A DNA stretch of 64,000 nt from Geobacterales bacterium (GCA_038318485.1 JBBQCH010000001.1:3434-67433); one strand, 5' to 3'; counted from the stretch's first letter, positions 2-45,594 are shown. Translations and numbers: made by a program. The notes: generated by a model not told the origin, from the sequence alone.

Positions 2-370
2 CTCAACCGTCTCGACCCGGCGCCGCAACCCGCGTTCAGAACTCTCATCAGGGTTCAAGCGGTTGATATCACTTTGCCGCTTTTCGACAGAGACAGGCAA
101 ATCTGGGAGCACCCAACGGATTATTCCGGTACACAGCAGTTTGGCAGGGTTGTGCGGAAAGGGGTTGTTGAAGCGATTCTATACAAATCGGTGCGAGACC
201 CGGCTGGAGGAAAGTGTCTGGCCCTGATGTCAACTGAAGGATTCAAATCAAAAAAACCGGAAAACGATATGCAGACATGGCATCTCACCGTCACCAGAAA
301 TGAGGTTGTCTGGACCCACAAGTTTAAAAACCTGTTTTCCATAGATGCTTCGGGTTGGGAAATTAATTAG
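2..370 (+). CDS. RES-domain toxin-like protein, 5' end outside the window
   Basis: The frame is open from the window edge. The C-terminal segment GVVEAILYKSVRDPAGGKCLALMSTEGF resembles the conserved core of RES-domain (Xre-RES toxin-antitoxin) proteins. Confidence 0.5.
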   Translation, partial: LNRLDPAPQPAFRTLIRVQAVDITLPLFDRDRQIWEHPTDYSGTQQFGRVVRKGVVEAILYKSVRDPAGGKCLALMSTEGFKSKKPENDMQTWHLTVTRNEVVWTHKFKNLFSIDASGWEIN

Positions 371-1123: not shown

Positions 1124-3583
1124 TCACCCCCTCGATTCTACTCGGGACATCTCATTACTCTTCCCGTTTTTTCTGCGGAACAGCCATTCGCGAACCAGCA
1201 CTCCTGCAAAAAGCACAAAAGAGCCCAGCGTCAGGTACTTGCCGATCTTGAAGGGGAGCGGATCAAACAGAAATTCTACCTTGTGTTTGCCAGGAGTAAG
1301 ATAAACTCCGCGCAGAACGTGGTTTACCGGAACAATCTCGACTGACTGGCCATCCACATACGCCTTCCAACCCTGATAATATTTCTCGCCCAGCACGAGC
1401 AGACTGTTTAATTTATTATTTATCGTCACATCAATCTTTTTTTCCTGATAATCGGTGACATCCGCAGTGCCCGGAGATTCGTTCTGAGGTTGGCCTGACG
1501 GAAGCAAGGGAAGCGGCGGAGCACTTTCCACCACAGCAAGCTGCCGCGGATCAAAAGCTGGATTCTGCAATATCTGGAGTGCTTGCATCCGGTTTCCGGC
1601 AACATAGGCTGAAGATACCAACCACGCTTTTGGCAGTACATTCCTGTTTTCCAGTACGACTTCTCCTCCATCAGCTGAGGTAAAGACCGGTACATATTTA
1701 TCGAAAAGCTGACCGCGTTCCTGCTGATACTGTTCCCCGGAAAAAACAACATATTTCACATTAAGCATGTCAGGCAGGGAGGAATTAAATGAGAATATAT
1801 CCAGTATTTCCTGCCAGCGCTGTTTCTGCACCGGATTCGGTGTAAACATGACCGGAATGTTGTGCGCAGAAAACTGCATCGGATCAACCCCGTTAGCCGG
1901 CAGGGTTCTATAGTATCTGGAATCTTTCGTAATGTACTCCATGGCTGGCGTTGAGCTGCCCTTAGCCTTGGCCGGAACCGGCACAAGAAACATGAACTTG
2001 TTGTTGACGCGGGCCGTGTCTCCGATGAACAGCGCAATCAACATTCCGCAGAAAAGCCATCCTGCCAGATACCTGCGTCGGTACGCCCAGATTATTATGA
2101 CAATCGCTGTCGAAAACCCGGCCGCGATAAGCAGTTCCTGCACCAGATTATTCCAGCGCTGGTCAATCAGATATTGCCCCTGCTCATAGCGTGTAGGTTG
2201 TGAAATCAGCCTGAAAAAACTGTCCACCAGCGTCTGTTTCCAAATCACGGCCGCCCCCGCAGATAGACACAGTACAACCGGCAGCGCCGTCAAACCGGCC
2301 AGATAACGTCCAAACAGCCGCCGGTCAAGTTCATCGCGATGCATAAGAAGATCAATTCCGCGCGCCGTGAGCACTCCCAATCCGATCACCGGAATGAACA
2401 TTATCATTTTGGGCACCCGGAAACGGTTGATACCGGGGAAATAATCATAGAAAAGATTGTAAAATGGAGTGTACTTGCCCATTGAAAAAAGCAGCGCTAC
2501 GACAATTCCGGCCAACGCCAGCCAGGTGTATTTGTCCCGTTTAAAGAGCAATGGCAATGGCAGCAGCAGCCAGGGCAACAGCCCCATATAGCTCAAGGTC
2601 TGGGTGAAAACCATTCGCCCCCAGTAATATGAATCATTGCTGGGCGGGTTTTCACCCGCCTCCTGGCGCGACATGCCGAACATGCCCGGAACGATAAAAG
2701 CGGCCAGTTCCTCAGGCGGCATTGACCACTGCATCGCTTCCTCCCGATCCAGCCCACCCTTGCCCTGATTGGCGCCGCTCTGTGCTCCGCGGGTTGTATC
2801 GGTCGACCAATTAGCCAACGGAGCCAGCGAAATCGCCACAGTACTGAGGAAGAAGGCCAGAACCACCAGATTCAAACCCAACATGCGCCATACCTGGCCG
2901 GTGTTGCCTTTAGTTTCGCCCACCATCATTCCCATTGTGCGCAGAACGCCGTAGGCTCCGACGCTTAGGCAGGTATAGTAGGCAATCTGCCAGTGGGTAT
3001 TAAAAAACTGGAAGGCCAATATAAAGCCGGTCGCCATGAAGAATATGATCCGCCGGGTACTGAACCCCTTTTCCAGAAAATAAAAAGCCCAGGGTGCGTA
3101 GGCAATCGTTGCGATTTTCATCACATGCCCGGCATTGATCAAGGTAGCAATTTCAGGTGCCAGAGCAAACACCAGTCCGCCCAGAAAAGCCGCCGGACGG
3201 CTGGTGCCAACCAGACGGCAACAGCAGTAAACTCCGGCAGCCCCCGCAAACAGGTGCAGCACGACGAACCAGGCCACATTGGCCGGCGGCGGGACAATAT
3301 GAAACAGCAGGGTTCTCCAGAACAGGAACTGCAACGATGCAAAGCCCCCTTCATTGGAAAGGCCACTGTTGATATAGATGTTCCAGTCCGGCGACAGGCT
3401 GCTCAAACTGAACAAATCTTTCAGTGGAGTGGCATGAAGATCCTTGATGCCCCAGTAAAATTCATTAATGATATCCGGGGCACGGATGATCTTGTCCGTA
3501 AAGAGGATTTTTGAGAACAGCACCAGAAGCAGTACCAGAAGCAGGCCGTAAGCCAACAGGTCTTTTTTTCGTTCAGAAGTCAT
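1124..3583 (-). CDS. YfhO-family polytopic membrane protein (putative glycosyl-transfer/glycan modification)
   Basis: 819 aa with many predicted TM helices. The C-terminal LVLGEKYYQGWKAYVDGQSVEIVPVNHVLRGVYLTPGKHKVEFLF plus a terminal TM helix is typical of YfhO. Confidence 0.65.
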   Translation of the reverse strand: MTSERKKDLLAYGLLLVLLLVLFSKILFTDKIIRAPDIINEFYWGIKDLHATPLKDLFSLSSLSPDWNIYINSGLSNEGGFASLQFLFWRTLLFHIVPPPANVAWFVVLHLFAGAAGVYCCCRLVGTSRPAAFLGGLVFALAPEIATLINAGHVMKIATIAYAPWAFYFLEKGFSTRRIIFFMATGFILAFQFFNTHWQIAYYTCLSVGAYGVLRTMGMMVGETKGNTGQVWRMLGLNLVVLAFFLSTVAISLAPLANWSTDTTRGAQSGANQGKGGLDREEAMQWSMPPEELAAFIVPGMFGMSRQEAGENPPSNDSYYWGRMVFTQTLSYMGLLPWLLLPLPLLFKRDKYTWLALAGIVVALLFSMGKYTPFYNLFYDYFPGINRFRVPKMIMFIPVIGLGVLTARGIDLLMHRDELDRRLFGRYLAGLTALPVVLCLSAGAAVIWKQTLVDSFFRLISQPTRYEQGQYLIDQRWNNLVQELLIAAGFSTAIVIIIWAYRRRYLAGWLFCGMLIALFIGDTARVNNKFMFLVPVPAKAKGSSTPAMEYITKDSRYYRTLPANGVDPMQFSAHNIPVMFTPNPVQKQRWQEILDIFSFNSSLPDMLNVKYVVFSGEQYQQERGQLFDKYVPVFTSADGGEVVLENRNVLPKAWLVSSAYVAGNRMQALQILQNPAFDPRQLAVVESAPPLPLLPSGQPQNESPGTADVTDYQEKKIDVTINNKLNSLLVLGEKYYQGWKAYVDGQSVEIVPVNHVLRGVYLTPGKHKVEFLFDPLPFKIGKYLTLGSFVLFAGVLVREWLFRRKNGKSNEMSRVESRG

Positions 3584-15788: not shown

Positions 15789-15823
15789 AATCACTTGATT
15801 CCAGATACACTTCAGTATATAAA
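15789..15823 (+). promoter_or_regulatory. candidate promoter with palindromic operator (AATCAcTTGATT overlapping -35 TTGATT; TATATAAA -10 region)
   Basis: TTGATT, a 17-nt spacer, then TATAAA. The same palindrome type and the same TATATAAA recur upstream of the second riboswitch copy at 40185-40225. Confidence 0.4.
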
Positions 15824-15851
15824 GGCCGCTATTAAACATAAAATGATAGTC

Positions 15852-15965
15852 GAGAATACTAAACCATTCGTAAGGATGGGACGGAAAGCCTACGGGTCTT
15901 AACGAGACAGCCGGGTCGCCGAAATATCTAAACAGATATAAGGCACCCGGTTTTTGCGTTTTCTG
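15852..15965 (+). promoter_or_regulatory. GEMM-I-type cyclic-dinucleotide riboswitch with intrinsic terminator (copy A)
   Basis: AAACCAUUC-GUAA-GGAUGGGACGGAAAGCCUACGGGUCU...AGACAGCCGGGUCGCCGA aligns closely to the Vc2 c-di-GMP-I aptamer. It has a GNRA-capped P1a, a P1b hairpin and a P1 stem (AGAAUA/UAUCU). The terminator CCGGGUCGCC/GGCACCCGG plus a U-tract shares its 5' arm with the aptamer. Confidence 0.8.
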
Positions 15966-16034: not shown

Positions 16035-16832
16035 ATGTCCAAAACGATGATGAATTTGGAGCGCAGAACGCCAGTCGTGAGTAATCTTGAAATGCAGGAC
16101 AGCTTTAATAGCAGGTATGCTGTAATTACTGCCGACACACTAGCACTGCAGGAACAGGCCTATAAATTGCGCTACCAGGTTTACTGCAAAGAAAGAAACT
16201 TCGAAAACCCGGATGCCCACCCACTGGAACAGGAGATAGATGAGTTTGATGCCCGCTCCGTCCATTCCGTTATCATTGATCGTCCCACTCGAGCAGTAAC
16301 CGCAACTGTAAGATTGATTCTGCCGAATCCGGATGGCTTTGAAAAAAGCTTTCCGATTCAAGGAGTCTGCAGTCACCCGATGCTTCGTAGCCATAAGCTC
16401 TTACATTCAGCACGATCAGCCGAAATTTCACGGTTTGCAGTTTCAAAGGAATTCAGCCGCAGGGCAACTGACAGTCACCAGTCCCGACAACGCATTGATC
16501 CTCGCAGCGAAAATCAGGCATCCATGCCGAACATCACACTGGGACTGATGAATGGTATCGTACGGATGAGCGTAGAGCATGGAGTTTCCGAGTGGTTTGC
16601 GGTCATGGAACCCACACTGTTACGCCTGTTGGCTCGCTTCGGCATCTATTTTTCACCCATCGGACCAATGGTTGACTATCACGGCATGCGCCAACCGTGT
16701 TACTCCAATATGCATAAACTGCTGGACAGAGTCCATAAAGAACGCATAGATGTTTGGGAGATCATTACTGATAACGGAAGACTGCTGGACGGTGAAGATC
16801 ATCAGTATCCTTCACTACGCTTTATCAATTAG
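16035..16832 (+). CDS. PEP-CTERM/exosortase-associated acyltransferase (N-acyl amino acid synthase-like), copy 2
   Basis: GGAGG lies upstream of the ATG at 16035. Motifs are AYKLRYQVYCKERNFE...DEFDARSVHSVI...EISRFAVSKEFSRRA, and it is a paralog of copy 1. Confidence 0.75.
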   Translation: MSKTMMNLERRTPVVSNLEMQDSFNSRYAVITADTLALQEQAYKLRYQVYCKERNFENPDAHPLEQEIDEFDARSVHSVIIDRPTRAVTATVRLILPNPDGFEKSFPIQGVCSHPMLRSHKLLHSARSAEISRFAVSKEFSRRATDSHQSRQRIDPRSENQASMPNITLGLMNGIVRMSVEHGVSEWFAVMEPTLLRLLARFGIYFSPIGPMVDYHGMRQPCYSNMHKLLDRVHKERIDVWEIITDNGRLLDGEDHQYPSLRFIN

Positions 16833-16841
16833 CAGTATTAA

Positions 16842-16870
16842 GGGGGCTCTAAATAAGACTTGGAGCCCCC
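16842..16870 (+). terminator. GC-rich hairpin after acyltransferase copy 2 (weak U-tract)
   Basis: GGGGGCUC-N13-GAGCCCCC starts 10 nt after the stop codon. The downstream sequence is only moderately T-rich. Confidence 0.4.
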
Positions 16871-17072
16871 CTGCACTTTATCATTTCACTATCAGAAGCA
16901 TGCACCTTGCCATCTTAAAAACCATATAATTTGTTTTATAGCACTCCCTGCTAAATCAATTAATGAGCTAAATTTTTTTCTAATTTCCCGGCAAGTTCAG
17001 CTTGTAACACATTTATTACTGAACTGTTCACTATTCAGTTTAACGTACTTACTTTTATGGTATAGTAATCAA

Positions 17073-18200
17073 ATGTTTTACGTTGCCCTACGCATTCTAA
17101 TGTACGACAAGGTACGCTCACTGATAACACTTCTGGGCGTTGTATTCGCTGTCGGCCTTATTTTCAACCAGCTTGGGATATTTCTCGGCTTGATGGAAAC
17201 TTCATCTGTAATAATTGACCATACTCCAGGAGACATCTGGGTTACATCCAAAAACAGTAAAAACTTCGATTTTTCCCAACCTTTTCCAGAATATATTTAC
17301 AATCACACCATCGCTGATCCTGACATCCTGTCAGCAGAAAAGCTGATTGTCGCCTGGGGGATAATACGTCAAAAAGAAGGGGGAACTGAACAGGTTGAAG
17401 TTGTTGGATTCAATCCCGATACCGGTATAGGGGGACCATGGGACATGATGGAAGGTGATCCCCGCCGATTAAAAAACGGAAATTTTGCCATAGTAGATGA
17501 ATCTGCAATGAAACGACTTGGAAAAATTCAGGTTGGAGATCATCGGGATGTTCTTTCGCATCGACTCGAGATAATAGGCCTTTCAAGGGGTGTAAAATCT
17601 TTTACAACTGCTCCGATTTTGTTTACCTCATTTGAGCTTGCCCAGCGATTGGTAACTTACATGGGTTCCGACAGTACAGTTTTCGTAGTTGCAAAGGTCA
17701 AGCAAGGTGCATCGCCAGAGCAGGTAATAACAAGGCTTAGAAGTCGCCTAAAAGGTGTCGACGTTTTCTCAGCAGCGGATTTTAGCATGAAAACTCGCAA
17801 ATACTGGGCCATAGAAACGGGTGTAGGCTTTTCATTCATGCTGACAATTGTGATAAGTTTTCTGGTCGGAATGCTGATTGTCGGTCAAACAATCTACAAT
17901 TCTACGATGGAGCATATCAAAGAGTTCGGCACCCTGAAAGCTTTGGGAGCCAGCAATATGGATATCTACAAAATCATTTTCTCCCAGGCAATGATCAACG
18001 CCATGCTGGGATACATAGTGAGCCTTATTATTACAATCGCCACCGTTAAAGTGTATGAACTTGGCGGTATGGTCATGGTAGTGCGCGGATGGGTTAATTT
18101 TCTGGTGCTCGGCCTTACACTTCTCATGTGCCTTTCTGCAGCGTTTGTATCAGTCCGCAGAATCAAGAAGATTGATCCAGCCATTCTGTTCCGGGGGTAG
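17073..18200 (+). CDS. ABC exporter permease, FtsX/DevC-like
   Basis: It has an N-terminal TM helix, a large periplasmic domain, and a C-terminal FtsX-type 3-TM bundle (FGTLKALGASNMDIYKIIFSQAMINAMLGY). The start was chosen at MFYVALRILMYDK. Confidence 0.75.
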   Translation: MFYVALRILMYDKVRSLITLLGVVFAVGLIFNQLGIFLGLMETSSVIIDHTPGDIWVTSKNSKNFDFSQPFPEYIYNHTIADPDILSAEKLIVAWGIIRQKEGGTEQVEVVGFNPDTGIGGPWDMMEGDPRRLKNGNFAIVDESAMKRLGKIQVGDHRDVLSHRLEIIGLSRGVKSFTTAPILFTSFELAQRLVTYMGSDSTVFVVAKVKQGASPEQVITRLRSRLKGVDVFSAADFSMKTRKYWAIETGVGFSFMLTIVISFLVGMLIVGQTIYNSTMEHIKEFGTLKALGASNMDIYKIIFSQAMINAMLGYIVSLIITIATVKVYELGGMVMVVRGWVNFLVLGLTLLMCLSAAFVSVRRIKKIDPAILFRG

Positions 18201-36895: not shown

Positions 36896-39847
36896 CTAGG
36901 CGGCAAGGGTGTTGACGCCCAGCGAATAGGAAGCGGTTGGCCAGGAAAAACTGTACGGCACAGCAGTTTTTGCGGCAAAAAGTTTGCCGTTTATGTAAAG
37001 ATCCACCCTGGTAACGGCGACATTGTCAGTCGCGGACACATTAACAGTAGTTGCGGCACTGACAGCAGCACCGTTAACTGGCGAAGTAATAACAGCAGTG
37101 GGCAGAGTTTTGTAGTTATTCACTGACACTGTAATAGTAGCGGACTGTCCCAGGTTTCCGGCCGCATCATAGGCCTTCACGGTCAGGGTACAGCTCGGGT
37201 AATTCCAATATCGCTTTGTATCCAGATTATAGCTGTAGGGAGCTTTGGTGACCGTGCCCAGCAACGTCCCATTTAGATAAAACATCATCTTGACAACTTC
37301 CTCATTGTTCGAAGCAACGGCAGCAATAGTCACTGTGCCGCTCAGAACGGCATTCGGTGCGGGAGCGGTAATGGATACAGTTGGCGTGATAGAGTTCGCC
37401 ACCATGTTGTTCACCCGCACCGTATTGAAAACCTGTGACTGGTTTCCTGCCATGTCAAAGGCTTTGGCCATCAGGACATGGGAGCCATTAGCAAGAGTCG
37501 TGGTGTCCAGACTGTAAGTGTAAGGGGCAGTGTTGAGCACGGCCAGCATGATTCCATCCTGATAGAACTCCACCCGCTTGACTCCGCCAGTGTCGGCTGC
37601 AGTTGCAACAACCGTGATCTTTCCAGCCACAGTGGAGTTGTTGGCAGGCGCGGTCAGTGAGACCGTCGGAGGGGTGGTGTCCGGCAGCGGATTGTTCACC
37701 TTGATTGTGATCAGAGCTGACTCCCCCACGTTGCCGACCGCATCATAGGCTCTGGCAAGCAGACTGTAGCTGCCGTTGGTGACTAAAGCGGAATTCCAGC
37801 TAAAACTGTAGGGACCCGGTGCCGGATCAGTGGCCTGCAGCACACCATTGACATATAATTCCACTTTTGTAACAGCCACGTTATCATTTGCAGTGACGCT
37901 GACGTTCACCAGACCGCTAAGGGTGGAGGCATTGACGGGAGAACTGATGGCAACGTTCGGAGCAGCCGTATCCATGGCCGGCGGCACGAAGGCGCCGGCC
38001 GATGTGGTGATTGTAACGGACCCATAGGAACTGTCACCCAGAGTATAGATCCCGGTGCTGGTGAGGGCATCCCATGCGGTGGCACTGCTGTCCGGATTTG
38101 ATTTGAACAGGGTTTGGCCGTTAGCCGGATTATGCAGTTCGACCACATGGGGGCGAAAAGCCGCTGTAATCGGTGTAGCGCTCTGGGTCAGTCCGCTATT
38201 GTTTTTGAGCTCATAGTCATACACCATGAATTGCGCCGTACCATCAGCACCGGTAGTCGCCTGGGTCTGCAGTACATTGTTTCCACTGTAGATATTAATG
38301 CCGGTATTAGGCAACAGAGTGCCAGAAGCGTCACGCCCCACCCCTTTCATCAGCCGGCCAAAGATGACGGACTTGTTCTTGTTTGGGTACTGAAAGTTCA
38401 TTCCCAGTTTATTCTCAGCCGCTCCTCCCTGATACGCATTGGAGATGAAACGTCCGGTGCCTTCCCAATAACCGTTAAGCCCGGCGCCGATGGTGGCATA
38501 GGCGGGGTAGTTGTCAACCTTAATAAAAGTGTTCTTGATGAAGAGCGGATAACCGGCACAGTCACCGTATTCATCGCTGAGCGCCACATTCAGAATATTG
38601 CTGGTAACGGTGTTGCCTTCAAAGCTCATGTTACCCACGTTGCCGCCGGTACAGGCAATGCCGAAGGCTTGGCCCTTGCCATCCTTGTCCAGTACTGTAA
38701 TTGTATTATTATTGAATTTGGAACTTTCTCCAGCGTTAACAGCCACCATCAGACCGCGGCCCTTGCCGTTAACCAGCACTTTTTGAGCGGTCGGTGAATA
38801 GCTTCCCTGATAGGTCGCATCGGTGTGGATCATAATCGTGTTGTTGTGGAAATTGATATTATTGCCGCCCCAGGTGGTGCGAAACCCGACCGCGTAATTG
38901 CCGCAGGGGGTGGCAGTGTTAAAGCAGGCCGCACTACCTCCATACTCATCGCCGATCCTGGTTGTCTGAGCATCAATCTTGTTATTATAAATTTCAATAT
39001 TATTGGTGCCAGCTGACACAAAGCCTATCCCGATTGGATGTTCGCCTCTAGCTGTAATCTGATTGTCATACACTTTGACATTTTGTGCCTTATATCCAAA
39101 TATCCCATAGGAATTGGTGGCCAAGCTGTTAATGGTTATGTTGTTTCCATACACCAGATCCTGATCGAATGCCGTAATTCCTCGCTGCCTCGCGTTTATG
39201 ATGGTATTGTTCCTGATAACGTTACACGTTGAACCGACACCAGTCGCACAGACTATGGAATCCACTCCCTGCATCCTGTTCTTGAGCGTGCCGTTTGTCC
39301 AGCCATCCTCAAGTATGTTATCCTCAATGATGCTCACATAGGCCAGTAACTTGAATCCGCCGACATCCCTTCCTCCATATCTTGCATGTATGCCGGCAAT
39401 CTGAAGCCTTGTCACACCTTTGGTTTTTACTGGATTATTTCCGGCACCATAAACATCCCCTTCTGACAATGCGGCGCCCTGTATAATCGAGCCGTTGGTT
39501 ATGGCAATATCGGATAGATTATATGTATCAACCGTTACACCCTCCCCAGGAGTGGTCTGATTATAAGTGATAGTGTTGCCATTGAGGTTTAAAACCACTT
39601 TTGATGCTCGAATAGCAATGGCTGTGCCATTCGCAGAAATATCCCGGTCCAGTATATATTCGGTGTTGGGAGTAGTGATGATGTAGGGAGTTGTGTAATT
39701 GCCACCGGCAATGTGCACCGTGTTGGTTACATACTGGCGGGAGAGGATGGTGGCGACTGATGCACCTGCGGCGGGGAATACCGGTAAGAAAAGAATAACT
39801 GCGGTGATAATTCCAGTAAACCTGGTAAAAAACGATCTGCTGATCAT
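36896..39847 (-). CDS. secreted right-handed beta-helix protein with C-terminal tandem Ig-like repeats
   Basis: AAGGAGG lies 6 nt upstream of the ATG at 39847. The signal peptide is MISRSFFTRFTGIITAVILFLPVFPAAGA. The N-terminal roughly 600 aa has repetitive N/G/T-rich PbH1-like turns and is a paralog of 42818-44683. Repeats of about 95 aa follow, each containing (V/A)TA.D..GV.KVEFY..G and AYDaaGN. Confidence 0.8.
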   Translation of the reverse strand: MISRSFFTRFTGIITAVILFLPVFPAAGASVATILSRQYVTNTVHIAGGNYTTPYIITTPNTEYILDRDISANGTAIAIRASKVVLNLNGNTITYNQTTPGEGVTVDTYNLSDIAITNGSIIQGAALSEGDVYGAGNNPVKTKGVTRLQIAGIHARYGGRDVGGFKLLAYVSIIEDNILEDGWTNGTLKNRMQGVDSIVCATGVGSTCNVIRNNTIINARQRGITAFDQDLVYGNNITINSLATNSYGIFGYKAQNVKVYDNQITARGEHPIGIGFVSAGTNNIEIYNNKIDAQTTRIGDEYGGSAACFNTATPCGNYAVGFRTTWGGNNINFHNNTIMIHTDATYQGSYSPTAQKVLVNGKGRGLMVAVNAGESSKFNNNTITVLDKDGKGQAFGIACTGGNVGNMSFEGNTVTSNILNVALSDEYGDCAGYPLFIKNTFIKVDNYPAYATIGAGLNGYWEGTGRFISNAYQGGAAENKLGMNFQYPNKNKSVIFGRLMKGVGRDASGTLLPNTGINIYSGNNVLQTQATTGADGTAQFMVYDYELKNNSGLTQSATPITAAFRPHVVELHNPANGQTLFKSNPDSSATAWDALTSTGIYTLGDSSYGSVTITTSAGAFVPPAMDTAAPNVAISSPVNASTLSGLVNVSVTANDNVAVTKVELYVNGVLQATDPAPGPYSFSWNSALVTNGSYSLLARAYDAVGNVGESALITIKVNNPLPDTTPPTVSLTAPANNSTVAGKITVVATAADTGGVKRVEFYQDGIMLAVLNTAPYTYSLDTTTLANGSHVLMAKAFDMAGNQSQVFNTVRVNNMVANSITPTVSITAPAPNAVLSGTVTIAAVASNNEEVVKMMFYLNGTLLGTVTKAPYSYNLDTKRYWNYPSCTLTVKAYDAAGNLGQSATITVSVNNYKTLPTAVITSPVNGAAVSAATTVNVSATDNVAVTRVDLYINGKLFAAKTAVPYSFSWPTASYSLGVNTLAA

Positions 39848-40039
39848 GCTAAACCTCCTTGGTTTTGTTGCTCCTAGAAAAACAGGACACCGTGGAGGTG
39901 AGGCGGTTCTTCGGTAACCCAGCCATCCTGTCGTCACAGGACCTGTAGCTTTGTGCCCCCCGGTTGCCCGAGGTTTACCCTTTTCGGAAGCAGTTATATA
40001 TGCGTGGTACCTGTTAAATCAGAAAATTGTGTTTCAACT

Positions 40040-40168
40040 CTAACAAAAAAAGCCGGATCGTCAATACATCAGGGGTTGTTATCCTTGATATTTCGGCGAC
40101 CCGGCTGTCTCTGTAAGACCCTTGGGCTTTCCGTCCCATCCTCACGGATGGTTTAGTATTATCGTATA
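40040..40168 (-). promoter_or_regulatory. GEMM-I-type cyclic-dinucleotide riboswitch with intrinsic terminator (copy B)
   Basis: The reverse complement matches copy A at about 68 of 75 aptamer positions. Differences fall in the GNRA loop (GUGA versus GUAA), one stem pair (C-G versus U-G) and loops. The terminator is GCCGGGUCG/CGAUCCGGC followed by U7. Confidence 0.8.
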
Positions 40169-40184
40169 TCGTTGTTTAATCGAG

Positions 40185-40225
40185 TTTATATAATCGGCGA
40201 TTTAAAAAATTAATCATGTGATTAA
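40185..40225 (-). promoter_or_regulatory. candidate promoter with palindromic operator (TTAATCAcaTGATTAA; TATATAAA)
   Basis: The minus strand reads TTAATCACATGATTAA-N19-TATATAAA. This is colinear with the module upstream of riboswitch copy A. Confidence 0.4.
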
Positions 40226-40322: not shown

Positions 40323-41699
40323 TTACGAAAACGGATTCGGCAACTTTGAAATACAAAAACGATACTTACCCGAAGATTCCGACTGAATCGAATCCACATA
40401 TTCAATCGAAAAGCGCATCGCGCTGCCGAAGCGTTCATGGGCCAACCGGCCGATGTCGGCCACTGTGCCCTCCGAAAACGACTCACCCTTCACAACGCGA
40501 AAGATCAGGTAATCAACCTGTTCCTGTACCAGTTGCATCTGTTTGATTCCCGGCAGGTGCATGGCAAAGTTCTCGGTCAGCGAGATGCCAGAGATATAAC
40601 TGCCATCCGGGGTAACCACATAATCAGCCACTCGTCCCTCCAGCGAATCCATGATCGGATAGCTGCAGCCGCAGGGACAGGAGGTCTTAGTCGATGGAAC
40701 CCCAACATCACCCACCTTGTAGCGAATAAAGGGCATGCCGAAATTGGTCAGATCCGTCACCACAATCGCACCCGGTTCACCCGGAAGCACCGGTTGCCCG
40801 TCGCGGATGAACTCCACAATCAGCGAATCACAGTTAAGGTGCATGTTCCCTTCCGGGCATTCACAGGCGATCAGACTGACTTCTTCGCAGCCATAACGGT
40901 TGGTCACATGGCAGCCAAAGATTTTTTCGATGGTTTTTCGTTCAAAATCGTGCAGCACCATGCAGGTACTGATGATGCCGCGGGGGCGGATGCCTTCCAA
41001 CCCGTTCTTTTCCAGAAAGCGGGCAAAGAGGTACAGGGAATGGGCATGGCCGAAAAGGATGACCGGAGGCTTTGTTTTTAATTCATGGTAGAAAGTCAGC
41101 ATCGACTTTTCGTCCATCTTGAGAGTATCAAGGTATGTATATCGCTCCAGCAAGTTATTGCGAAGCCTGGTCCGCCAGTTGATATTGTGCTGTGGATTGC
41201 CCCAGATTGCTCCCACCCGTTCGCCGATATTCCAGCCAGCCCAGCGGTCATAGGACATGGTCACGGCCCGTTTCCATTGGGCGCTGGCCTCGTCGACAAC
41301 CAGTTCCACCGAAACCCCGGTCGAACCAGAAGTCTTCTTGGCGACAAGCTGATCTTTGGGGATATTCCGGGCGATCATAGCGGCCTTATTGGCGCGGATA
41401 TCGTCCTTGGTCAGTAGTGGCATACGCTGGAAATCTTCCCAGGAGTTGATATCAGTTAGTATAAGGCCACCCTGTCGAAAACGTTCAGTATAAAAAGCCG
41501 AATTGGCTGCAGCATGAGCAAGCAGGCGCTTCAATCGCTGCCACTGATAGTCCTGCACCTGTGCCAGTAGACGCTTTTTCGACCCATCCAGTGATTTCAG
41601 ATGGCGCAGGTAGGGGGTGCCCTCTTTCATGGCCCAGAGCGGGGCAACCAGACGGCGGGCGATAGCGGAATAATAATCAGCTTGATTTGTAGTAGTCAT
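40323..41699 (-). CDS. adenylate-forming enzyme, phenylacetate-CoA ligase / CapK / F390-synthetase-like family
   Basis: 458 aa containing KKTSGSTGVSVEL (AMP-binding P-loop-like) and the overall PaaK-like pattern. The start at 41699 lies 3 nt after the upstream stop. Confidence 0.65.
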   Translation of the reverse strand: MTTTNQADYYSAIARRLVAPLWAMKEGTPYLRHLKSLDGSKKRLLAQVQDYQWQRLKRLLAHAAANSAFYTERFRQGGLILTDINSWEDFQRMPLLTKDDIRANKAAMIARNIPKDQLVAKKTSGSTGVSVELVVDEASAQWKRAVTMSYDRWAGWNIGERVGAIWGNPQHNINWRTRLRNNLLERYTYLDTLKMDEKSMLTFYHELKTKPPVILFGHAHSLYLFARFLEKNGLEGIRPRGIISTCMVLHDFERKTIEKIFGCHVTNRYGCEEVSLIACECPEGNMHLNCDSLIVEFIRDGQPVLPGEPGAIVVTDLTNFGMPFIRYKVGDVGVPSTKTSCPCGCSYPIMDSLEGRVADYVVTPDGSYISGISLTENFAMHLPGIKQMQLVQEQVDYLIFRVVKGESFSEGTVADIGRLAHERFGSAMRFSIEYVDSIQSESSGKYRFCISKLPNPFS

Positions 41700-42817: not shown

Positions 42818-44683
42818 TTAATAGGAGAGTGTCAACTTTTTTTCCACAGCAAGAACACCGCCCAAATAGAGTCCTGGTGAATAGGTTCCTATACTGGTAA
42901 ATGTATCCCATGCGGAGGCGGTATTGTCAGGTCGTGTAGAAAATGTATCCGTTCCAATAACAGCCTGTATAGTATGCGGACCTAGTTTGCGGGTCAGAGG
43001 TTTAGTGCTGGTGTTGTTGCCGTCATACAGCTCGTAGTCATAGACGATCAGATTTACCCTACCACCGGCATCTGTTGTCGACGAAGAATCAAAAGGTGCA
43101 CCGCCATTTAGCAGAGTAATAGCTGCCCCTTCAATGCGTTTAGCAGTTGTAGTCTCCGATAGGATGCCAGAAATCTCTCTGCCGAAATAGACCGACTGGC
43201 GCCCCTTTCCGGCAGCATTGATATTAATATTTTTCTGCGAAGCCCCGCCTTTATAGATATTTGATACAAACCGCCCGGTACCTTCGAAATACCCTCCGAA
43301 CTCAGATGCAATAGTGCTATAGACAGTAAAGCTATCTGCTTTTATAAAGGTATTCCTGATGAACAATGGATGGTTGCTGCAGGCGCCATACTTATCACTC
43401 AGAGCGACATTCAGAATATTGCTGATGACAGTGTTTCCCTCAAAGGTCATGTCACCAGCGTTGTTGCCAGCACAGGCGATGCCGAAGGCCTCGCCCGAAC
43501 CATCCTTGTCTAGCACCGTAATCTTATTGTTATAGAATTGTGATTTTTCACCCGCATTGATCGCCACCATCAGTCCGCGCCCTTTTCCATTGACAGTTAC
43601 AGGCTTGCCGGTGGGAGAAAAGCTGCCCTGAAAGCGGGAATCGCTGCGTACAACAATCGTATTATCATGGAAGCTGATCTTGTTGCCGCCCCAGGTGGTC
43701 CTGAAGCCTACGGCATAGTTGCCGCAGGGGGTGGCGGAGTTAAAACATGCCGCACTTCCACCGTACTCTTCACCGATTCGAGTAGTCTGTACGTCGATGG
43801 AATTGTTGTAAATCTCGATATCGTTGGTGCCGGCAGAAACGAAACCGATTCCAATCGGATGCTCGCCGTTGCCGGTGATGGTATTATTGTAAACCTTCAC
43901 ATGCTGGGACTTGTATCCCATGATTCCATAGGAGTTGGTGGTCAGGCTGTTGATAGAAATGGAATTGCCATACACCGCACCATGGTTACCAATGGAAATC
44001 CCTCGTTGGCGGGCATTGATGATTTTATTATTACGGACAATATTATTAGAATCTGTGGCCTGGATTGCATCTATGCCCTGATGCCTGTTTTTCATGGTTC
44101 CCGCGGTCCAGACATCTTCCAGCGTGTTGTTCTCAATCAAACAATTGGCCACATACTGCAGCTTGAACCCGCTGACATCCCTGCCGCCATAACGAGCATG
44201 AATCCGGGCGATGTGCAAACCGCTAAAACCTTTGGACCTGATCGGATTGTTTCCCCCCCCATAAACATCACCTTCCGACATGGCCGCACCCTGGAAGATC
44301 TTGCCATTAATAATTGCGATCGTGGATTTGTTGTAGACATCTATGGTAACACCTTCACCGGGAGTGGTTTGATTATAGGTGACGGTCTTGCCGTTTAGGT
44401 TTACAACCACATTTGAGGCGCGAATGGCAATAGCGGTGCCATCGGCGGCCATATCTCCATCCAGTATATATTCAGTGTTGGGAGTACTGATGATATAGGG
44501 TTTCGGATAATGCCCGCCCGGAATAGCTACGGTTCTGGTGACATGCTTGCGCACGCTTGTTTCAGTATCAAGGCTGGTGGACGCAGCAGCAGAGTTTTCT
44601 GCATGGGCACATTCACCCCAGGCCAGAACACAACATAAGCAGGCAAAAAACCATTTCATCGACATGGAACCCCCGGTTTTCAT
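42818..44683 (-). CDS. secreted right-handed beta-helix protein (paralog of 36896-39847, without Ig repeats)
   Basis: The ATG at 44683 overlaps the upstream GT2 stop (ATGA), and alternative ATGs lie at 44665 and 44659. The signal peptide is MKWFFACLCCVLAWGECAHA. Long colinear identity runs with the other beta-helix protein, for example TPNTEYILD...GTAIAIRAS...YNQTTPGEGVT...HARYGGRDV. Confidence 0.8.
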   Translation of the reverse strand: MKTGGSMSMKWFFACLCCVLAWGECAHAENSAAASTSLDTETSVRKHVTRTVAIPGGHYPKPYIISTPNTEYILDGDMAADGTAIAIRASNVVVNLNGKTVTYNQTTPGEGVTIDVYNKSTIAIINGKIFQGAAMSEGDVYGGGNNPIRSKGFSGLHIARIHARYGGRDVSGFKLQYVANCLIENNTLEDVWTAGTMKNRHQGIDAIQATDSNNIVRNNKIINARQRGISIGNHGAVYGNSISINSLTTNSYGIMGYKSQHVKVYNNTITGNGEHPIGIGFVSAGTNDIEIYNNSIDVQTTRIGEEYGGSAACFNSATPCGNYAVGFRTTWGGNKISFHDNTIVVRSDSRFQGSFSPTGKPVTVNGKGRGLMVAINAGEKSQFYNNKITVLDKDGSGEAFGIACAGNNAGDMTFEGNTVISNILNVALSDKYGACSNHPLFIRNTFIKADSFTVYSTIASEFGGYFEGTGRFVSNIYKGGASQKNININAAGKGRQSVYFGREISGILSETTTAKRIEGAAITLLNGGAPFDSSSTTDAGGRVNLIVYDYELYDGNNTSTKPLTRKLGPHTIQAVIGTDTFSTRPDNTASAWDTFTSIGTYSPGLYLGGVLAVEKKLTLSY

Positions 44684-45594
44684 GATCTTTTTATCAGGCA
44701 GCACAGCAGCCCTTTCCACGCGCTGACATGGAAAGGAACATTCAAAACCGATTTCAGGTAACAAACCGCCGCTAATCTAAAATTCTTTTGGCCTCTGGCG
44801 TAATAAGCCTTATTAGCCCAGGTATCAGCTAAAGCCAAACGTGGCACCCACCATGACATACTCGCCCTGATTTCAGTATCATTCAGCGCTTTGTCCATGA
44901 TCCTGTGGGCGCACTCATATCTACGCATGACATTTTTTGAAAGGTTTGCATGCCCGGTACGATATTTAACCAACGGCGCATCGACAAAATCGAATTTGCA
45001 ACGAACGGCAAGACGCACCCACAGGTCATAATCGATCCCCATCGGCAGGTTTTCATCGAAGGCACCGTGCTCCGTCAGCAGGCTCCGTCGAACTACGGAA
45101 GAGGAAAAGCAGATAAAGTTGTCGATGAAAATATGGTCCAAGATAAAACCTCGCCGAAGTATTCGCTCGTTGCCCGGCATTATGTCCCCTTGGCTATCCA
45201 TCCAGGTACGGCGGCAGTACACCACACCCACTTGCGGATCTTCGAACAGCAGCATCTGCCGCTCCAGTTTGTCGGGCAGCCAGATATCGTCGGCGTCCAG
45301 AAAGGCGACGAACTCGCCCCTACTTTTGGCAATGCCCCGGTTTTTAGTTTTCGGTTGTCCAGCATTGGCTTGCCGAATATAGCATACGCGAGGATTGGTC
45401 ATATAGCGTTCCATAACCTGCTGTGTATCGTCAGTGGACCCGTCGTCAACCACAATTACTTCGATATTTTTATACGTTTGCGTCAAAGCCGAACCCATGG
45501 CAAACGGTAGATAGCTTGCGTAGTTATAACTGGCTATTACCACCGAAATCAGCGGATTGCATGTTAGAGACAGCTTATTATCCGGCATGGACAT
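44680..45594 (-). CDS. family 2 glycosyltransferase
   Basis: Contains ISVVIASYNYASYL...VVDDGSTDDT...FLDADD. Confidence 0.85.
   Translation of the reverse strand: MSMPDNKLSLTCNPLISVVIASYNYASYLPFAMGSALTQTYKNIEVIVVDDGSTDDTQQVMERYMTNPRVCYIRQANAGQPKTKNRGIAKSRGEFVAFLDADDIWLPDKLERQMLLFEDPQVGVVYCRRTWMDSQGDIMPGNERILRRGFILDHIFIDNFICFSSSVVRRSLLTEHGAFDENLPMGIDYDLWVRLAVRCKFDFVDAPLVKYRTGHANLSKNVMRRYECAHRIMDKALNDTEIRASMSWWVPRLALADTWANKAYYARGQKNFRLAAVCYLKSVLNVPFHVSAWKGLLCCLIKRS

Follow-up and report, generated by a model that had tools for sequence, protein, structure and literature searches.

The window analysed here, a stretch of DNA of 64,000 nt taken at its full length, carries on its minus strand a gene for a 983-residue protein (36896–39847). 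Its start is the one proposed in an earlier sequence-only reading of this DNA, namely an ATG (39845–39847) behind AAGGAGG, within the Shine–Dalgarno (SD) element AAGGAGGU at 39853–39860. The description of the product as a secreted β-helix/Ig-repeat protein also stands, as the chain comprises a signal peptide, a β-helix spanning residues ~40–615 and four Big_7 Ig-like domains. The N-terminal domain of ~600 residues has no Pfam match of its own, and its AlphaFold model is a right-handed β-helix (pLDDT 92.5, pTM 0.89). The nearest solved folds are those of phage tailspike depolymerases, alginate epimerase/lyases and the V. cholerae biofilm lyase RbmB, at low fold-search values (TM-scores of 0.3–0.45, E-values of 1e-5 to 1e-3); a sequence search of the PDB with the β-helix domain returned no match. 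Named homologues of the protein come from Geobacter spp. Most likely, the protein is a secreted enzyme that modifies or degrades exopolysaccharide. Cyclic-dinucleotide control of such a protein would be plausible, and in Geobacter GEMM-Ib switches have already been reported ahead of polysaccharide genes (PMC6456294).

Neighbouring genes encode an exosortase/EpsI fusion and a Crp-family regulator, along with an AMP-ligase-like enzyme and a UDP-sugar epimerase. Among named organisms, the best relatives of this adjacent epimerase come from a Desulfuromonadaceae MAG (76%), Oryzomonas (73%) and Pelotalea (72%), and, going by protein best matches, the host looks Desulfuromonadales/Geobacteraceae-like. 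Further upstream in the same gene string lies a paralogue of the target protein (42818–44764, minus strand; 60% identity; Pfam Beta_helix/NosD), which has neither Big_7 domains nor a riboswitch. The paralogue/ligase/target synteny is also seen in Geobacter sp. FeAm09.

Scanning the whole window on both strands with 4227 Rfam families at gathering thresholds gave exactly three matches, all within the GEMM-I clan. Two belong to RF01051 (c-di-GMP-I; gathering threshold 35 bits): copy A on the plus strand (15848–15923, 52.3 bits) and copy B on the minus strand (40092–40167, 48.0 bits, E 2.7e-6), the latter a full-length match to the model. The third, on the minus strand at 39909–39988, scores 60.4 bits with RF03167 (c-di-GMP-I-GGC), above the gathering threshold of 59 bits for that family. 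A local covariance model (R1), built from 15 related aptamers, recovered the same three aptamers and nothing else in the window, with 70.5 bits for copy B (40090–40167) and 92.2 bits for the third element when its P1 5′ strand is included (39909–39993). In three short orthologous contigs it also picked out truncated copies, each at the 5′ end. The sequence-only reading had suggested a covariance-model search of this type for what it took to be a second copy of the riboswitch at copy A, and the common RF01051 membership (48 bits for copy B, 52.3 bits for copy A) bears that identification out.

Copy B is thus a genuine member of the GEMM-I (c-di-GMP-I) riboswitch family, with a match far above chance. 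It lies in the 5′ leader of the β-helix/Big_7 gene, on the same strand and with an expression platform of its own. The earlier claim that it controls this gene holds with respect to its upstream position, but copy B does not act alone, because a second GEMM-I aptamer that had been missed (39909–39988, hereafter the proximal aptamer) sits between the distal terminator and the ATG. The same placement makes the leader a tandem: the ATG at 39847 is 197 nt downstream of the U7 tract that ends the distal switch, with the proximal aptamer in between.

With respect to the fold of copy B, the minus-strand sequence from 40170 to 40044 is GAUAUACGAUAAUACUAAACCAUCCGUGAGGAUGGGACGGAAAGCCCAAGGGUCUUACAGAGACAGCCGGGUCGCCGAAAUAUCAAGGAUAACAACCCCUGAUGUAUUGACGAUCCGGCUUUUUUU. 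The P1 helix, read from this sequence, pairs a 5′ strand GAUAU (40166–40170) with AUAUC (40087–40091), and copy A and one orthologous leader (L008, below) have the equivalent GAUA:UAUC pairing. The span originally given for the element, 40040–40168, contains the sequence as described, although the element reaches slightly past its start because the P1 5′ strand occupies 40170–40166. The P1a hairpin CCAUCC-GUGA-GGAUGG (40136–40151) is closed by a GNRA loop, the P1b helix is also present, and all ligand-contact and tertiary-motif positions are intact. The whole element has a minimum free energy of −48.5 kcal/mol (z −5.2 against 200 dinucleotide shuffles). Homologues examined for compensatory changes, as had been proposed, agree with this fold. 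In a structural alignment of 16 local homologues, 94.6% of the cells are standard pairs, 11 of the 21 pairs show two-sided changes and the covariation score is 0.488 as against ≤0.146 with the partners slid, counts that lean towards the structure since the alignment was fitted to it. The family as such is well supported already.

The two RF01051 copies are close relatives. Copy A (15845–15955, plus strand) is a lone GEMM-I riboswitch of the A20 type that has a terminator of its own, and the gene behind it (ATG at 16035) encodes a PEP-CTERM/exosortase-associated acyltransferase. It sits between two paralogous genes of this type (TIGR03694; 14899–15690 and 16035–16832, plus strand), the second of which is followed by a gene for a DevC-like ABC permease at 16860–18200. 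Without gaps, the reverse complement of 40086–40167 is identical to copy A (15848–15929) at 72 of 82 positions, and the hand count of 68 matches in 75 proved exact, there being seven differences over the 75-nt core. Also as described, copy B has a GUGA tetraloop where copy A has GUAA, and one P1a pair is C-G in copy B versus U.G in copy A. The remaining differences do fall in the P1b bulge and loop, but not all are structure-preserving as had been supposed, because one C to A change leaves copy B with an A.G mismatch in P1b where copy A has a C-G pair.

The distal switch ends in an intrinsic terminator (40044–40106, minus strand; −28.7 kcal/mol) whose 5′ arm, AGCCGGGUCG(CCGAAAUAUCA), is the 3′ strand of the aptamer itself. 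Specifically, the aptamer 3′ strand AGCCGGGUCG(C)CGA-AUAUCA pairs with UGAUGU...UUG-CGAUCCGGCU, such that AUAUCA:UGAUGU forms the upper helix and CGAUCCGGCU (40051–40060) the 3′ arm, followed directly by U7 (40044–40050). The sequence-only reading had noted that the 3′ arms of the two copies differ, and they do: CGAUCCGGCU plus U7 (40060–40044) in copy B and GGCACCCGG plus U5 (15942–15955) in copy A, both of which pair with the common aptamer segment AGCCGGGUCG as proposed. The small anti-P1 hairpin of that reading is a real pairing, but is better regarded as the upper portion of the terminator hairpin than as a hairpin of its own. Its argument that two platforms with the same logic point to function can be extended from two to six independent terminators, namely those of copies A and B and of four orthologous leaders (L006, L007, L008 and L010). 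All six have energies of −23 to −35 kcal/mol and run into U5–U9, and in all six the P1 3′ strand AUAUC pairs with a downstream GAUAU-like segment. The 3′ arm, loop and length differ from one to the next, yet each pairs with the same aptamer 3′ strand. Since this 5′ arm is also aptamer and is invariant, two-sided covariation is impossible for the distal terminator, and its support is instead six independent solutions to the same pairing problem.

Because the ligand-bound aptamer and the terminator are mutually exclusive, we infer that the distal switch is an ON (anti-termination) device. When ligand is bound, the aptamer (P1, P1a and P1b) would keep its 3′ strand AGCCGGGUCGCCGAAAUAUC, no terminator would form and RNA polymerase would continue. 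In the ligand-free state, the AGCCGGGUCGCCGAAAUAUC strand would instead pair with the CGAUCCGGCU and UGAUGU segments, and transcription would end at U7. This type of ON logic, together with the T/A/H arrangement, has been shown experimentally for the cGAMP riboswitch of G. metallireducens pilM (PMC9262584), and in vivo observations in G. sulfurreducens agree with it (PMC6456294). The same GEMM-I fold with A20 and a terminator that swallows the aptamer 3′ strand including the C92 region, again in an ON switch, characterize Geobacter GEMM-Ib riboswitches such as those of G. sulfurreducens GSU1761 (pgcA) and G. metallireducens pilM. Their hosts fall in or near the same order as ours, and their regulon likewise holds extracellular and polysaccharide functions. 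The points of difference are that copy B is known here from sequence and that a β-helix/Big_7 target in a PEP-CTERM/exosortase locus is not among the genes named in the literature examined. In sequence, copy B probably resembles the GSU1761 riboswitch, Gs1761, closely.

As to how the leader is transcribed, a −10-like element TATATAAA at 40185–40192 (minus strand) is common to copy A (15816–15823). It lacks a consensus −35, which leaves a promoter for the distal leader weakly supported, and a promoter scan made no call for this element. Read-through into the leader from the upstream ligase-like gene, which ends at 40323, is possible. A candidate sigma-70-like internal promoter between the two switches (TTGACG-16-TAGAGT, 40064–40037, minus strand) was set aside, being at chance level and not conserved in leaders L006 to L010; it overlaps the 3′ arm and U-tract of the distal terminator.

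These features invite the question of whether copy B might sense no ligand, being either a duplicate in decay or just an attenuator, constitutively active, with which the upstream operon ends. The extra P1b mismatch and an Rfam score below that of copy A (48 versus 52.3 bits) speak for this view, as do the weak promoter and the presence of upstream genes on the same strand. It is nevertheless very improbable in our estimation. The ligand-contact and tertiary-motif positions have all been kept, the distal element persists in at least four orthologous loci although the proteins are only 54–70% identical, and the terminator complementarity is maintained in each orthologous locus that has the distal element.

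In terms of ligand, the determining base is the one that corresponds to G20 of Vc2, the canonical c-di-GMP-I riboswitch (RF01051). Copy B shares with Vc2 the secondary structure, the GNRA tetraloop, A47 and C92. In contrast to Vc2, copies A and B have A at position 20, and only the proximal aptamer has G there. This A falls at model position 11 (40157 in copy B, 15858 in copy A), the unpaired base that directly precedes the GC/CU closing pair, in a segment that reads AAUACUAAACC in both copies. A47 and C92 are conserved in both as well (A at column 38; GCCGAA at the 3′ end), and A20 recurs in the distal aptamer of L008 and in one aptamer of L044. A20 is the accepted determinant of cGAMP recognition in GEMM-Ib, and A20G confers c-di-GMP selectivity (PMC6140456; PMC6456294; PMC9481103). 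It is not fully predictive of cGAMP selectivity, however, given that the G20A mutant of Vc2 is bispecific and binds both ligands (PMC6140456) and that a natural A variant from Desulfobacca acetoxidans shifts the preference in part only (PMC9481103). Judged by its A20/A47/C92 triad, copy B most likely belongs to the cGAMP-selective GEMM-Ib subtype. The earlier description of a second copy of the same riboswitch holds, but it had overlooked A20, which predicts cGAMP rather than c-di-GMP.

The proximal aptamer carries a different signature, with a triad of G20 (39979), A47 and C92 that is of the canonical c-di-GMP type. Its Rfam label calls for comment in this regard. We read the names of the Rfam variants as bases at positions 20/47/92, as inferred from the consensus lines of the models: the consensus is GACGC-G-AA in the GGC model and GACGC-A-AA in RF01051, and the UAU model has U/A/U. 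The proximal aptamer reads CAC-A-AAGC at this site. It therefore has A47 and not the G47 of the GGC variant, so that the GGC label fails its own defining feature; the label is best explained by clan competition, in which a model derived from related sequences comes out ahead. GGC or UAU labels despite G20/A47/C92 were seen for five aptamers (the window at 39909–39988, L006 at 136–217, L007 at 131–210, L008 at 3028–3106 and L009 at 2861–2941), and in these cases too they appear to reflect clan competition, not altered binding pockets. Rfam variant labels of this type can accordingly mislead for canonical aptamers of the Geobacter kind.

The tandem is conserved beyond the window. Nine leaders, the window included, were compared upstream of target-protein homologues with 43–70% identity, in a syntenic context of CapK-like ligase, target, Crp regulator and exosortase. 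All nine have a proximal aptamer with G20/A47/C92. A distal aptamer of the A20 family is present in 5/9, and A20 itself is readable in two, the window and L008. In L007, L006 and L010 the distal element belongs to the same sequence family but the contig ends before position 20; that of L007 is identical to an A20 aptamer at 57 of 62 positions. The distal aptamer carries G20 in two leaders, L009 (Geobacter sp. FeAm09) and L100. L005 has no distal element, and the L044 contig stops short of the distal site. The distal A20 aptamers form a sequence family separate from the proximal ones and shared with copy A. No riboswitch was found at the more distant homologues L001–L004 and L099, the first four of which are 53–58% identical and came from a search of genome contigs with the β-helix domain.

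A wider background was available from a metagenome scan whose pattern, taken from P1a of the proximal aptamer, had turned out to be unspecific, with unrelated genes at 86 of 88 loci, and whose yield was reused for this purpose. It comprises 108 GEMM-I aptamers from metagenome contigs, a sample biased by the search pattern, in which the G/A/C triad accounts for 80/108 and A/A/C for 8/108. All other tandems in it are G/A/C followed by G/A/C, which suggests that a heterotypic tandem may be particular to this gene family.

The distal aptamers of L009 (2711–2796; CP042466) and L100 (2243–2324) have a G at the C92 column (UUGGCGAA), a base found there in none of the 108 metagenomic aptamers. In both leaders it is the distal sensor that departs from the canonical triad, and the proximal sensor keeps it.

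Building from this comparison, one may ask whether the two aptamers of the window answer the same ligand. If the A20 aptamer were bispecific or c-di-GMP-responsive, the leader would hold a homotypic c-di-GMP pair that only sharpens the dose-response. A protonated adenine does allow A20 RNAs to bind c-di-GMP (PMC6140456), c-di-GMP-I doublets are numerous, with 347 on record (PMC9481103), and L009 and L100 have G20 at both aptamers. The homotypic arrangement would also sit comfortably with the lack of a visible cGAMP synthase (Hypr GGDEF) in the 64-kb window, where no GGDEF motif occurs in any frame. Against it, a selectivity of ~1200-fold for cGAMP is reported for the A20 riboswitch that precedes pgcA (GSU1761) in Geobacter (PMC6456294), and the distal A20 aptamers keep to their own sequence family, apart from the proximal ones and in common with copy A. 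Moreover, since the other tandems sampled among the 108 aptamers are all GAC then GAC, the retention of A20 here looks deliberate. On balance we consider a homotypic pair unlikely.

The proximal expression platform (39876–39908, minus strand) begins with a degenerate element, GAAGAACCGCC, that combines the P1 3′ strand with a terminator 5′ arm. The P1 3′ strand GAAGAAACAG serves in most orthologues also as one side, the 5′ arm, of a hairpin, AACAGG...CCUGUUU(U/C), from which an ON switch is predicted, by analogy with the distal terminators of L009 and L100 and that of L064. In the window this shared element has diverged to AACCGCC in place of AACAGG, the P1 extension and the terminator stem are weakened, and the canonical terminator stem of the orthologues is lost. 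What remains is an inner hairpin, CACC-UCCAC-GGUG, which holds an anti-SD sequence ACCUCC (39894–39899), and an ending of GUCCUGU plus U5 (39876–39888). The latter is one half of a perfect 7-nt direct repeat, with GUCCUGU at 39942–39936 (the P1b 5′ strand) and again at 39888–39882, immediately before U5, and either copy can pair with ACAGGAU, the P1b 3′ strand. A three-way-junction terminator built on ACAGGAU:GUCCUGU reaches −17 kcal/mol when folded by itself, but within the whole leader it lies 6.7 kcal/mol above the minimum and was kept as a possibility only.

In 9/9 orthologues the terminator-like hairpin has, in its loop or inner stem, an anti-SD CCUCC that pairs with the SD, with helix energies of −14 to −27 kcal/mol that shuffles rarely match and with flanks that covary; in the window the helix spans 39853–39899 (minus strand) and is predicted to involve the SD just ahead of the ATG. 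At ~20 nt before the SD, the orthologous leaders have a conserved CUAGGA(A/G)C motif.

Pairing of this kind raises the alternative that only the distal unit is an ON switch, for cGAMP, and that the proximal unit is a translational OFF switch for c-di-GMP, in which the anti-SD CCUCC would be released to mask the SD once ligand has locked P1 and P1b. The leader would then compute cGAMP AND NOT c-di-GMP. In addition to the anti-SD:SD helix with its covarying flanks in all nine leaders, the U-tracts that are interrupted or absent in L008, L010, L044 and L100 (L100p) and the loss of the canonical proximal terminator in the window speak for this arrangement. Its logic would be coherent as well, since c-di-GMP antagonises cGAMP synthesis in G. 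sulfurreducens (PMC6456294). Partition-function modelling points the other way, as the SD is masked equally with or without the aptamer enforced and no ligand dependence is therefore predicted. In the orthologues, furthermore, the P1 3′ strand overlaps a terminator-like 5′ arm in the manner of the clear ON terminators of the L009 distal, L100 distal and L064 aptamers, whose U-tracts are long. An OFF proximal unit thus seems to us decidedly unlikely, although, as a reading of the tandem, cGAMP AND NOT c-di-GMP is a live alternative to the default one, an AND gate.

Taken together, these observations favour the view, to which we would assign a probability of about 0.78, that 40044–40170 on the minus strand is a complete transcriptional ON switch of the GEMM-I family, most likely of the cGAMP-selective GEMM-Ib subtype, placed before a second aptamer of the c-di-GMP type. 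Under this preferred reading, RNA that has read through the distal terminator would then reach an independent c-di-GMP-type aptamer (39909–39988) with its own platform before the SD and ATG. With two aptamers in series, expression of the β-helix/Big_7 gene would depend on two cyclic-dinucleotide sensors, and if both are ON switches the result would be a cGAMP AND c-di-GMP gate. More tentatively, and with somewhat less than even confidence, we suggest that the leader may be a two-signal integrator (A20 plus G20) that uses either AND or cGAMP AND NOT c-di-GMP logic to gate a secreted exopolysaccharide-active enzyme, and that related lineages may have retained the canonical proximal sensor and swapped the ligand-contact bases of the distal one (A20 in the window, G92 in FeAm09 and L100).

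Tandem use is not in itself unusual in these bacteria. The leader of GSU2885 (omcAHG) in G. sulfurreducens likewise has two full GEMM-I units in series, the first with its own terminator, but tandems of that type are labelled as two GEMM-Ib (cGAMP) units, whereas here the second unit has G20, which predicts c-di-GMP. Transcripts are lost in a cGAMP-synthase mutant of G. sulfurreducens, tandem cases included (PMC6456294). Independent riboswitches in series with their own platforms, one of them an A20 GEMM-I, are also found in the gates described by Sherlock et al. in 2022 (AdoCbl/c-AMP-GMP, Desulfobacca acetoxidans). A pair of c-AMP-GMP and c-di-GMP units is absent from the gate table of that survey (PMC9481103), and such pairs could be hidden among its 347 pooled ‘c-di-GMP-I’ doublets. 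Full-text searches covering the literature other than the two 2015 discovery papers gave no report of a heterotypic A20/G20 tandem, and a search with the aptamer sequence returned unrelated primer matches only. GEMM-I/GEMM-Ib RNAs, terminator-based ON logic and tandem use are therefore already established in Geobacter, and copy B is nothing new in kind; the one novel aspect would be the possible two-signal gate for cGAMP and c-di-GMP.

With regard to the biology of the host, the two RF01051 riboswitches would bring a PEP-CTERM/exosortase exopolysaccharide locus into the cyclic-dinucleotide regulon of an uncultured Desulfuromonadales-like bacterium, through an acyltransferase gene at copy A and a secreted depolymerase-like β-helix protein at copy B. 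The A20-then-G20 tandem, kept in several orthologous loci, is a candidate RNA gate that would integrate cGAMP and c-di-GMP and, if the assignment is true, a logic gate joining two antagonistic cyclic-dinucleotide signals of Geobacter-like bacteria.

Two of the orthologous contigs show further features. In L044, another A20-type aptamer (39–116, minus strand), 92% identical to the distal aptamer of L007, is found downstream of the target-gene orthologue and presumably controls the next gene. In L005, GC-rich palindromic repeats (ACAGCGGTG twice; CCCCGC..GCGGGG stems) occupy ~1100–1290, upstream of the proximal aptamer, and may be a repeat or the remnant of a mobile element.
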